From: a virus
Taxonomy: Duplodnaviria; Heunggongvirae; Uroviricota; Caudoviricetes
DNA: 8,315 nucleotides
Virus record (IMG/VR): IMGVR_UViG_3300045988_169852
Span: 1-8,315 of that record
Strand: one strand, 5' to 3'
Positions 6,001 to 8,315 of this stretch are shown here, piece after piece; within the stretch, counting starts at the first letter, position 1, and every line of letters starts with the position of its first letter. Position numbers: made by a program.

Positions 6001-8315
6001 AATCATGATTATAATCATAACTGGATGAACATCCAGTTATGATTTTTTAAGTCAAAGAGGAATTTCTTACTATGGCTGAAGAGAAAAAAGGCGGTATTTC
6101 GGTGTACATAAGCCCCGACATCGTGAAGGCGCTCAAGGAACGCCACCAGCAGAACGTAAAAGCAGGCATTGCGGCAGGACTTGATCCGCTGGCGATGGTT
6201 GAGCCGTCAACAGGCTGGCAGGTACGCGCCTATTTACGCGCGGCGCTGGGTATGAATCAGGTTCACGGGGGTGAATAATGACAGTAAAAGCAATAGCACT
6301 TAACACTAACCAGCTTTTTGCGTACCTGAATCGCGAGGATATTGCGGAATTTAAATTCAGTCCGCTGTTTACCGCGCTGTTTTTCCCGAACGTGGCGACA
6401 TTCAACACACAGGACATCATGTTAGATAACCTGGATATTGAAGAAGTCACTATGTCGGCGTTTTGTTCGCCTATGGTGGGTAGCCAGGTTCAGCGCGATA
6501 AAGGGTACGAAACAAGCATTATTCGCCCTGGCTACATGAAGCCAAAACACGAAATCGATCCATTAAAAACAATAATGCGCATGGCTGGAGAAGATCCAGC
6601 ACAGCTTAACGACCCTACCTACCGCCGTATGCGCCTGATTACTGGCAACATGCGCCGCCAGATAAACGCCATTAAAGCGCGCGTGGAATGGCTGGCGGTA
6701 AATGCGGTAACGACCGGAAAAAACATCATTGAGGGCGAAGGCATAGAGCGCTATGAAATCGACTGGAAGATACCGGAAAAAAACATCATAGAGCAGGCCG
6801 ACGGTAAAAAATGGTCAGAGCAGGACAAAGACATACACGACCCAATCTATGACATTGAGCTATACGCAGATCAGGCAGGTTGCCCCGCAAACGTCATGAT
6901 TATGGGCGTTGATGTATGGCGCATGTTACGCAGCTTTAAAAAATTCCGTGAACTGTACGATCTCTCCCGTGGTTCAGAATCCGCCGCAGAGCTGGCATGT
7001 AAAAACCTGGGCGAAGTGGTGAGCTTTAAAGGCTATCTTGGTGATCTGGCCCTTATCGTCTATTCCGGCAAATACACTGACAGCGACGGCACAGAAAAAT
7101 ATTTCCTTGAGCCTGATTTGCTGGTCCTGGGCAACACCAACAATAAAGGGCTGGTGGCCTATGGTGCGATTATGGAACAGGAAGCGGTAAGAACGGGCGC
7201 AACGCAAAACATGTTTTACCCGAAAAACTGGATTGAGGACGGCGATCCGGCGATTGAGTACGTGCAGACGCACAGCGCACCGCAGCCGGTTCCGGCAGAT
7301 ATTCGCAAATTTGTTACCGTCAAAATTGGTTAACGGGGGGATTCTATGGACACTCCATACATTGAGTTATTTGCAGGCAGTCAGCAGGTATCCACGACGC
7401 TGGTACATTTTGCCGCTGATGCTGGCGTTATTCAGGAATTTACCCCGCTGATGCTGGCGGACAATGGCGAGTTTAAGCCGTGGGATGGTCAGGAATCTGG
7501 CAAGGCTGTTTATCTGACTTCGTATCCTGTGGACACGTCAAAGCAGAAATCAGCACAGTGTTACAAGACGGGGATATTTAATATCGCCGCCGTAAACTGG
7601 CCTGAGAGCGCCGACACTGACGCGAAAAAATGCGCCGCCTTTGCGGGTTCTGGCGTATCCGTTCAGCCGCTGGCGCGATAAGCAGGGGAAACGATGGCAA
7701 CGAATGAAAGCATCATGGCGCTACCGCTGGCGAGTAAATTTAAAGCAGAAGCGCGGGCAATGGCTGACAGAGGTTTATCAACCTACGAGGCCGTATATCA
7801 ACTCAACAAACTGGAAGAGCAGGACAAGCCGCGCGCTGATGCGATTATGGCGCTTCATGAGCATAAAGACTATCAGCCGCTGTTACGTGCAATGGCAAAC
7901 GTGCCATGTATTAGCGTCGATAATGCTCGTGAAATCCTGAACATGACCATAGAGCAGGAGCGCCCAAAGGTTGCACCAGAGCTTACCGCAGCCTTTGAAA
8001 ACTTTATGGACATGCACAGCCCGCAAGCCGTATCAGCTGGCATGGCATACGATGGCAGAAACCAGGGCGATGACGGCGACATCGATCGCATACTGAAAAC
8101 CATCTGAGACAAGGCCGGAGAAATCCGGCTTTTTTTTACGGGTCCTTTCCGGCATATGGACCCGTTACGGGGCGGCGACCTCGCGGTTTTTCGCTATTTA
8201 TGAGCCTTTTCAGGGGGGTGGTGGTGGTTTTGTTGTTTGCTCTATCTTTATGAATAAAAAGGGAAAGATGCAAGCAATACACCAACCTGAAGCAGTAATT
8301 AAGTTGGTGTATTAA

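Follow-up and report, generated by a model that had tools for sequence, protein, structure and literature searches.

A lambda-type cos site with a distinct cosB beside a predicted complete small terminase gene in an island of the EcCICFT073 family

The 8,315-nucleotide stretch of DNA analysed here (hereafter the window; positions 1 to 8,315 of the IMG/VR virus record IMGVR_UViG_3300045988_169852) ends in what we identify as a complete lambda-type cos site (8140–8315), which lies between a block of capsid-protein genes and the gene for a small terminase subunit (TerS). The products of its open reading frames (ORFs) are assigned by Pfam to AlpA (alpA, 316–504), DUF4222, DUF927 primase (2645–4783), SSB, a gpE-like capsid protein and a gpD-like decoration protein, and the window is classified as a phage-inducible chromosomal island (PICI), that is, a satellite, of the EcCICFT073 family. 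Window 8101–8315 is 100% identical to the genome of E. coli strain N10 (L001, from 15345), whose island is 97–100% identical to the window, has a length of ~11 kb, is flanked by yljB and clpS and carries an integrase at one end. The int-alpA-pri module within 10–20 kb that characterizes Gram-negative PICIs is thus present, with alpA and the primase gene in the window and the integrase and the length in N10. On the 3′ side of cos, the N10 island contains only a gene annotated as 'terminase small subunit' and a 93-aa gene before the island ends. No large terminase subunit (TerL), portal or tail genes are found 3′ of terS in this island, nor in the O157 and Di14 islands, and a TerL-like match 3′ of cos was obtained in 0 of the 80 IMG/VR loci analysed, 22 of which extend for 3 kb or more beyond cos. 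Because TerL, portal and tail genes are absent, packaging of the island depends on a helper. An ordinary prophage cos was ruled out by the gene content and the absence of TerL, while a capsid-forming PICI, considered on account of the capsid and decoration genes, was ruled out by the absence of TerL, portal and protease genes.

Relatives were gathered through TerS protein homologues, the contigs encoding them and a pattern scan of IMG/VR. The comparison set for cosB, anchored on cosN, comprised 9 E. coli islands (alignment A1), 7 islands of other Enterobacteriaceae, which sit in a prophage capsid gene and have a TerS of only 57–59% identity, and 79 IMG/VR loci. The scan matched 98 stretches; 80 loci with the window's cosB were analysed, and the 79 loci of this cosB class that entered the comparison were chosen on element A (described below) only. 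In the following, bp numbers are anchored on cosN, so that window 8220 corresponds to bp 51.

The left part of the site begins with the heptamer GGGTCCT (8140–8146, + strand), which we take to be the cosQ of lambda. It matches lambda at 7/7 positions and stands at −30 to −24 from the top-strand nick, which is the lambda spacing. The same sequence and spacing are found in lambda, PhiR5_1, CFT073 phage 4, EcCICFT073 cos1 and all of the TerS-type islands, and the heptamer is present in 77/79 IMG/VR loci. The cosN segment (8168–8183, + strand; boundaries as defined in PMC9026076) consists of the 12-nt cohesive end GGGCGGCGACCT (8170–8181) and 2 bp on each side. The cohesive end is identical to that of lambda (12/12), so that the lambda-identical core described in the initial annotation is fully borne out. 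GGGTCCT-N23-GGGCGGCGACCT, in which both motifs are joined, has a single occurrence in the window (8140–8181, + strand) and was found in 0/200 dinucleotide-preserving shuffles. The nicks are predicted from homology at 8169/8170 on the top strand and 8181/8182 on the bottom strand, a stagger that in a lambda-type site leaves 12-nt 5′ overhangs.

The initial annotation had also described about 30 bp on either side of the cohesive end as nearly identical to lambda. In ungapped comparisons anchored on cosN, this is correct for the right side, where bp 13–34 are 21/22 identical to each of lambda, PhiR5_1 and EcCICFT073 cos1, but not for the left side, which matches lambda at 24/32 positions overall and at 15/23 between cosQ and cosN. 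The left arm from cosQ to cosN is much closer to PhiR5_1 (31/32). The cosN-proximal block CGCGGTTTTTCGCTATTTATGAG (8182–8204, bp 13–35, + strand) is common to phages and islands, and is invariant in alignment A1. From bp 35 onwards the similarity to lambda is lost, as bp 35–145 match at 44/111 positions, which we read as approximately background, and a blastn search of 50,697 phage records returned a match confined to window 8133–8215, with nothing to the right of 8215.

Two further observations concern this left part. The cosQ heptamer lies within a perfect 8-bp inverted repeat, ACGGGTCC / GGACCCGT (8138–8145 and 8158–8165), which is also present in EcCICFT073 cos1 and PhiR5_1 but not in lambda. 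In addition, the cohesive end varies among the 79 loci sharing the window's cosB class: GGGCGGCGACCT is found in 57, while the other 22 have different 12-mers, among them GGGCGTCAGGCG and GGGCGGAAGGCG; the lambda-like prophage in L052 has GGGCGGAAGGCG as its cohesive end, too. This variation, together with the occurrence of GGGCGGAAGGCG in the L052 prophage, suggests that the cosN side has been exchanged with resident phages, with cosB staying constant.

The right part of the site, cosB, is built from two elements and a spacer. The G/T-rich tract that had been noticed at 8211–8240 is richer in G+T than any other stretch of the window, with 27/30 G+T overall and 23/23 at 8217–8239. It belongs to element A (8209–8239, + strand), a proposed R3-equivalent, in which the core GGTGGTGGT at 8220–8228 (bp 51–59) is followed by TTTTGTTGTTTG. 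Within this element, GGTGGTGGTTTTGTT does not vary among the E. coli islands of A1, and GGTGGTGG (bp 51–58) is kept even in the islands with 57–59% identical TerS. The position of element A coincides with those of R3 in lambda (bp 50–65), R3 in N15 (bp 48–60) and the putative R3-PICI (bp 48–65) (Murialdo & Feiss 2022, PMC9026076). The following A/T-rich spacer (8240–8278, + strand) contains A-tracts and occupies the place of the lambda IHF site I1; its blocks TATCT, ATGAAT and AAAAGGGAAAGAT are conserved in A1. Element B, a proposed inverted R2-equivalent (8279–8291, bp 110–122, − strand), reads ACACCAACCTGAA, with the reverse complement TTCAGGTTGGTGT. It is invariant in A1 and present in 79/79 IMG/VR loci, at bp 110 in 78 of them. 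In the window, TTCAGGGGGGTG at the start of element A pairs with TTCAGGTTGGTG in element B at 10/12 positions, and closer pairs are found in relatives (11/12, 12/13 and 16/20). The same scan also recovers the inverted pair R3 and R2 of lambda, at bp 53–65 and 108–120, with R2 in the same place and orientation as element B. We therefore propose that the layout is that of lambda, with R3, a spacer and an inverted R2, built with R sequences of the N15 type.

The gene that follows this cosB starts with the last base of the window (terS ATG, 8315, + strand), and the remainder lies beyond it. All TerS analyses were done on the N10 copy, a 180-aa Nu1-family ORF at position 15559 of L001, which corresponds to window 8315. 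The protein matches Pfam Phage_Nu1 (PF07471, E 9e-23, 81 bits against a cut-off of 30), aligns with phrog_57 from end to end (E 1.9e-52) and shares 34% identity with lambda Nu1 over residues 6–166; the gene is thus predicted to encode a full-length Nu1-family small terminase. The weak top PDB match of the TerS family profile was lambda TerS 1–98 (6HN7_B, E 0.0049), and a PDB sequence search with the island TerS itself gave no meaningful match. Among the 50,697 phage records, the closest phage TerS is N15 gp1 (46.6%), and none exceeds 47%. The resemblance is unevenly distributed: the DNA-binding domain (residues 6–50), for which we propose, from its sequence, an N-terminal winged helix-turn-helix, is 60% identical to N15 gp1 compared to 27–31% for lambda-type proteins, whereas residues 85–166 are 60% identical to PhiR5_1 Nu1 compared to 39–43% for lambda and N15, with 67% identity to PhiR5_1 in the central residues 85–130. 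No adjacent, translationally coupled large-terminase gene is present 3′ of terS in the N10, O157 and Di14 islands, where the 93-aa gene and then the island end follow. Such an orphan TerS is a satellite signature.

The conservation of this arrangement bears on whether the site is functional at all. That it might be a decayed, non-functional remnant of a phage cos appears very improbable to us: cosQ, cosN, bp 13–34 and elements A and B are conserved, in sequence as well as in register, among islands with flanks and TerS that have diverged to 57–85% identity, an intact terS is always adjacent, and the homologous EcCICFT073 cos1 is functional (PMC6092414).

The reading that we favour, with moderate confidence, is that the island TerS binds the island cosB and recruits the TerL of the helper, thus replacing rather than modifying the helper TerS. 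What the sequences themselves show is the anatomy of the site and its conservation, how the cassette is built, that the island has no TerL, and that the cassette is physically linked to lambda-like prophages; binding, nicking and TerL recruitment, as well as the identity of the helper, are what we infer. In this scheme, cosQ, cosN and the adjacent 22 bp are kept helper-like, so that the gpA-like TerL of a lambda-type helper would be able to nick at 8169/8170 and 8181/8182 and to end packaging at the next cosQ/cosN. From approximately bp 35–41 onwards, the island would have a cosB of its own, comprising the R3-equivalent GGTGGTGGT (bp 51–59), the A/T spacer and the inverted R2-equivalent ACACCAACC (bp 110–118). 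The N15-type winged-helix domain of the island TerS would bind elements A and B, while its C-terminal half, which is closest to PhiR5_1-type TerS, would recruit the helper TerL, and the helper terminase and capsids would thereby be diverted to island concatemers.

A sister cassette with known function provides the nearest comparison. EcCICFT073 is located next to phoQ in the CFT073 genome and shares 95% identity with the window over 5840–8210 (up to bp 41); the match of the N10 island resumes, at 92%, at the 93-aa gene. Between these breakpoints, EcCICFT073 has ~100 bp of cosB, rppA and an inverted cos2, whereas the N10 and window islands have 111 bp of a different cosB and terS. The two islands are alike in that cos lies between the capsid-gene block and a specificity gene, the cosB is private and the island has no TerL. 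Compared with the window, EcCICFT073 cos1 is 31/32 identical in the left arm, 12/12 in the cohesive end and 21/22 over bp 13–34. They differ in that the cosB sequences are unrelated (31/111), that of the window being longer, with the start codon at bp 146 instead of bp 102 for PICI-C (PMC9026076), and in that the second, inverted cos2 of EcCICFT073 is lacking in the N10 island. In the O157:H7 JEONG-1266 island (L005 11842), a second inverted cosN resembling EcCICFT073 cos2 is located between terS and the 93-aa gene.

The experimental work on EcCICFT073 established that its cosQ and cosN resemble those of lambda and phi80 while its cosB differs (Fillol-Salom et al. 2018 ISME J, PMC6092414), that its cloned cos sites allow transfer by lambda and phi80 with a requirement for the helper TerS (PMC6092414), that RppA (c1503, 144 aa) binds the helper TerS (Fillol-Salom et al. 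2019 Mol Cell, PMC6739421), and that recognition of the EcCICFT073 cosB depends on the island factor RppA (PMC6092414, PMC6739421). In this family, helper-driven induction and high-frequency transfer are on record for EcCICFT073 alone (PMC6092414). The idea from which the present analysis started, a satellite with a helper-type cosN and a cosB of its own, is well supported by the PICI gene content and by the 95% identity to EcCICFT073, whose cos logic was demonstrated experimentally; as such, it restates from sequence alone a published mechanism. The literature led us to expect an Rpp as the gene 3′ of cos, but comparison with RppA from the CFT073 genome ruled this out. Instead of the 144-aa RppA, the window island has a 180-aa Nu1 homologue without similarity to it: BLASTP gave no alignment between the two proteins, and RppA covers only the first ~50 positions of the phrog_57 profile, corresponding to the DNA-binding part. 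The segment ACCACCACC was singled out as the conserved part of R3-PICI (Murialdo & Feiss, PMC9026076), and lies at bp 55–63 of EcCICFT073 cos1 (L004 2613–2621). The window does not have this core there; its exact reverse complement, GGTGGTGGT, is found at bp 51–59 (8220–8228). The DNA-binding domain of RppA looks lambda-like and that of the island TerS N15-like, despite the shared inverted core.

These facts bear directly on an Rpp-like mode of action, in which the island TerS would co-assemble with the helper TerS through its conserved central self-association region; the mixed oligomer would favour the island cosB and lose affinity for the phage cosB, while the contact with TerL would come from the helper TerS. 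The EcCICFT073 sister cassette does work in this way and requires the helper TerS (PMC6739421, PMC6092414), residues 85–130 are the part of the island TerS nearest to a helper-type TerS (67% to PhiR5_1), and the extreme C-terminus is poorly conserved and extended. Nevertheless, Rpps are shortened proteins of 135–153 aa without the last 30–40 TerS residues (PMC9026076), with a TerS-like DNA-binding domain and a dimerisation helix of their own, and it was argued that, lacking the TerL-binding C-terminus, they need the helper TerS to bring TerL (Murialdo & Feiss 2022, PMC9026076). The island TerS, by contrast, aligns with Nu1 to the C-terminus and with phrog_57 over its entire length, has no detectable similarity to RppA and could in principle act without a partner, being a full-length TerS that comes with a cosB of its own. 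We therefore consider the Rpp-like mode unlikely, though it deserves to be kept in mind, and prefer direct replacement of the helper TerS.

The cassette has a phage counterpart. The E. coli lambdoid prophage in L064 (IMG/VR contig 3300028982_000003) encodes a TerL that is 93% identical to PhiR5_1 gpA, and a TerS that is 49% identical to that of the island as a whole, with an N15-type DNA-binding domain at 58%. Over bp 35–130, its cosB matches the window at 64/96 positions (67%) without gaps, and contains a perfect GGTTGTTGT at bp 51–59 and, inverted, at bp 110–118. The same contig also carries an embedded island with an island-type cosB. This alignment shows that phage cosBs related to that of the island do exist, and we regard the window cosB as a diverged, phage-derived homologue of the L064 type. 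The elements of the L064 prophage also fix the R-like elements A and B independently of the islands. The initial annotation had described the cosB side as unrelated to that of lambda, which stands (44/111 over bp 35–145), but this does not extend to all phage cosBs, as the N15-type prophage demonstrates. A mosaic origin of TerS, combining an N15-type DNA-binding domain with a PhiR5_1-type C-terminal half, was considered and set aside, as the L064 prophage shows that phages already combine both; simple descent of the island TerS from an L064-like phage seems the more economical reading.

The phage and island versions differ at the recognition helix and at the core. In both phage lineages (N15, which has GGTTGTTGT at bp 50–58 within R3, and the L064 prophage), the helix ...SVQAFDKWG goes with the core GGTTGTTGT, and in both island lineages, the helix ...(A/V)TAFDKWG goes with the core GGTGGTGGT at bp 51–59. 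This covariation looks like what a change of specificity would produce, with two lineages on each side.

The same comparison bears on an explanation without any redirection, namely that the island simply carries the whole cos of a natural N15-type lambdoid helper and is packaged by the TerS and TerL of that helper, as are P4 and SaPIbov5, its own terS being redundant or serving another purpose, such as interference. The L064 prophage lends this some plausibility, with its 64/96 cosB in register, the same two R-like elements and the 58% identical DNA-binding domain. However, the R cores differ systematically, with GGTTGTTGT in phages and GGTGGTGGT and GGTTGGTGT in islands, in step with the recognition helix; the 50,697 phage records contain neither a cosB match nor a TerS above 47%; and in the one linked pair, L064, the cosBs of the prophage and the embedded island differ. 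Cassette-bearing islands are inserted in the portal gene of lambda-like E. coli prophages in L026, L052, L064 and L068, which physically ties the cassette to phages with gpA-type large terminases, and in L015–L021 (Citrobacter/Enterobacter-type) they split the prophage major capsid gene. Other embedded copies sit in prophages with a lambda-type Nu1 and a lambda-type cosB, as in L052, where the first 40 residues of Nu1 are identical to those of lambda. Furthermore, terS is intact beside the island cosB in every locus examined. Packaging without redirection thus strikes us as quite improbable, less so than a decayed remnant but more so than the Rpp-like mode.

Several observations weigh against replacement of the helper TerS by the island protein, or against the cosB layout on which it is built. 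With regard to the TerL contact, identity to any phage TerS is only 31–50% over the final 36 aligned residues of the island protein, which correspond to the gpA-binding region in Nu1, and its C-terminus runs on for 13 residues that the phage proteins lack. Because of this poorly conserved and extended C-terminus, direct binding of TerL is not assured. An AlphaFold2 model of the island TerS, made from a 19-sequence alignment, had a mean confidence score (pLDDT) of 58.5, with the DNA-binding domain below 50, and was not used. With regard to cosB, the IHF consensus WATCARNNNNTTR (at most 1 mismatch) is not found in the window spacer, while it occurs at bp 74–79 in lambda, PhiR5_1 and the islands embedded in capsid genes. 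The A/B pair is not significant in the window alone, as 70/500 shuffles were as good (10/12); the case for the pair therefore rests on conservation in the relatives. OkiPb01711 and W619 have a 6-bp deletion of two GGT units (A1 columns 119–124, window 8213–8218), which moves element B from bp 110 to bp 104 and alters the spacing between A and B; in lambda, 3-bp changes in the cosN–cosB spacing are severe (PMC9026076). Finally, given the 67% resemblance of the L064 cosB, the TerS of an N15-type helper might recognise the island cosB directly.

The cassette is widespread. The window-type cosB was found in 767/5426 complete E. coli genomes, including O157:H7 strains, compared to 97/5426 for the RppA-type cosB with rppA, so that the window cassette is ~8x commoner than the RppA cassette in these genomes; RppB and RppC cassettes were left uncounted. 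In all 40 of the matches listed, spread down the ranking, the cosB adjoins a 'terminase small subunit' gene, and in the loci checked it ends 2 nt before terS. In one matching strain, 'clone D i14', the island is EcCIDi14, which has been published. To our knowledge, Rpp is the sole mechanism worked out for Gram-negative cos PICIs. The presence of a terS homologue in some Gram-negative PICIs has been noted (2018 paper, PMC6092414), and our literature search, with most subscription journals outside its coverage, returned no experimental study of TerS-encoding E. coli cos PICIs, their cos sites or the action of their TerS. The kind of packaging piracy is thus already known, and the window represents a variant with a complete TerS in the place of Rpp, one that is common but little studied.

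On a broader and more tentative view, which we hold to have slightly less than an even chance of being right, the commonest cos cassette found here in EcCICFT073-family E. coli islands represents a mode of piracy distinct from Rpp, in which a retuned TerS of the N15 lineage and a matching two-element cosB would take TerL from several lambdoid helper types without the helper TerS, perhaps excluding it. The features retuned on this reading would be the recognition helix, now ...ATAFDKWG, and the R core, where GGTGGTGGT takes the place of GGTTGTTGT. That the (GGT)3 core recurs in the Rpp-type cosB in inverse orientation would then point to a common origin of both cassettes.

PICIs spread virulence and defence genes among enterobacteria at high frequency, and preferential packaging decides which helpers spread them. 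The window cassette occupies the same locus, with the same flanks, as the Rpp cassette, with a complete small terminase as the specificity factor. If the island TerS does act by substitution, it would form a natural, compact test system for the evolution of TerS–cosB specificity (GGTTGTTGT versus GGTGGTGGT, with 2–3 changes in the recognition helix), and would also test how much of the Nu1 C-terminus is needed to recruit a foreign gpA. If the island TerS acts like Rpp instead, it would show that a protein may function as an Rpp without having lost the TerL-binding domain. For engineered PICI or cosmid delivery vectors, a 180-bp site and one 540-bp gene would make a portable packaging-specificity module.

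Compared with lambda cos (cosQ-cosN-I2-R3-I1-R2-R1), cosQ and cosN are identical and equally spaced, the TerS gene is again directly downstream, and the two proposed R-like elements of opposed orientation lie at about the same coordinates as the R sites of lambda (window bp 40–59 and 110–122, lambda bp 53–65 and 108–120). However, the R sequences are unrelated (G/T triplets in the window, CGTTTCC... in lambda), the cosB is shorter, with the ATG at bp 146 instead of bp 191, and no gpA gene follows the terS of the window island. In N15, an R element of G/T triplet repeats occupies the same position as in the window, but it is a single element, the ATG is at bp 89 and the cohesive end is GGGCGGCGTCCG; relative to N15, the R core of the window island has G for T at two positions, and a second, inverted element is present. 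The L064 prophage, unlike the island, is a complete phage with TerL and has GGTTGTTGT as its R cores.

Among satellites, the pac-type Staphylococcus aureus pathogenicity islands (SaPIs) also encode a TerS homologue (TerS_S) and no TerL of their own, and steer the helper TerL to the satellite genome (Ubeda 2007, as cited in PMC6739421). They differ from the window island, which is cos-based and retains helper-type cosQ and cosN, in that packaging is by the headful (pac) mechanism, the hosts are Gram-positive, the TerS belongs to an unrelated family and the phage TerS is blocked by a further protein, Ppi. The anatomy of the window appears consistent with a strategy of the SaPI type, combining a satellite TerS, an own site and the helper TerL. 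P4 and SaPIbov5 also use cos packaging, but with the complete cos of the helper and no TerS of their own. Capsid-forming PICIs likewise use cos packaging, but encode their own HNH-TerS-TerL, portal, protease and connectors, compared to only TerS and gpE-, gpD- and Nu3-like genes in the window island.

Close to the end of the window, a perfect 11-bp inverted repeat, AATACACCAAC/GTTGGTGTATT (8276–8286 and 8303–8313, + strand), encloses a 16-nt loop. The repeat had been reported in the initial annotation and is indeed there, although its right arm is not conserved in the relatives. The left arm overlaps element B, and the right arm, which stops 2 nt before the terS ATG and holds the sole Shine-Dalgarno-like GGTG, overlaps the likely terS ribosome-binding region. 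Rfam detected no family at the hairpin or anywhere else in cos. The perfect repeat is present in only 21/79 IMG/VR loci, compared to 79/79 for the left-arm motif, and in diverged islands the right arm has given way to GTGGGGATATT or a GAGG-type Shine-Dalgarno sequence while the left arm shows no compensating change. Since the right arm is not conserved, we read the hairpin as specific to a subgroup and not as a defining part of cosB, with the left arm alone behaving as a cosB element. As RNA, the repeat folds with −14.5 kcal/mol (z = −3.1). Together with the position of the right arm and the pattern in the relatives, this makes it conceivable, if on balance rather unlikely, that the repeat is an RNA hairpin masking the terS ribosome-binding site, or a chance by-product of element B lying beside a GGTG-type Shine-Dalgarno sequence, and not a terminase-binding structure. 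A different assignment is suggested by lambda, where R1 is located downstream of R2 in the same orientation as R3; GTTGGTGTATT fits the R-like consensus, and the right arm may be an R1-like site in this subgroup.

Upstream of cos, the gpE-like major capsid protein gene (6278–7333, + strand; Pfam PF03864, E 3.8e-49) corresponds to c1499 of EcCICFT073, and carries the label 'major capsid protein' in the annotation of the relatives. It is followed by the gpD-like head decoration protein gene (7346–7681, + strand; Pfam PF02924, E 1e-17) and by a 137-aa ORF directly 5′ of cos (7694–8107, + strand), which matches phrog_1999, of unknown function (E 6e-65). A second match of this ORF, over residues 45–119 (E 1.2e-10), is to the C-terminus of phrog_53, 'head maturation protease', the matched part being the counterpart of the lambda Nu3 scaffold. 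The ORF possibly encodes a Nu3-like scaffold; a PDB sequence search with it gave no meaningful match. The gpE-, gpD- and scaffold-like genes are present in the island, although EcCICFT073 was reported to be packaged in full-size heads (PMC6092414). An intrinsic-terminator-like hairpin with a 9-pair stem and a T-tail (8111–8138, + strand; inverted repeat I3) would close the capsid-gene transcript just 5′ of cosQ, and is kept in the islands that have the same left arm. A sigma-70 promoter scan found no + strand promoter between this terminator and terS; read-through, helper antitermination and transcription across the joined ends are the possible routes by which terS could be transcribed.

In the left half of the island, Rfam identified a C4 antisense RNA (72.6 bits), together with the a1/b1 element that it targets, at 1618–1667 and 1735–1822 (+ strand). 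These elements adjoin the ends of two small Icd-like ORFs (...ARIRQG..HA*), with stops at 1587 and 2044, and the region looks like an antisense circuit of the P1/P7 immI type inside the island. The long ORFs at 562–1587 and 1580–2044 are probably for the most part spurious.

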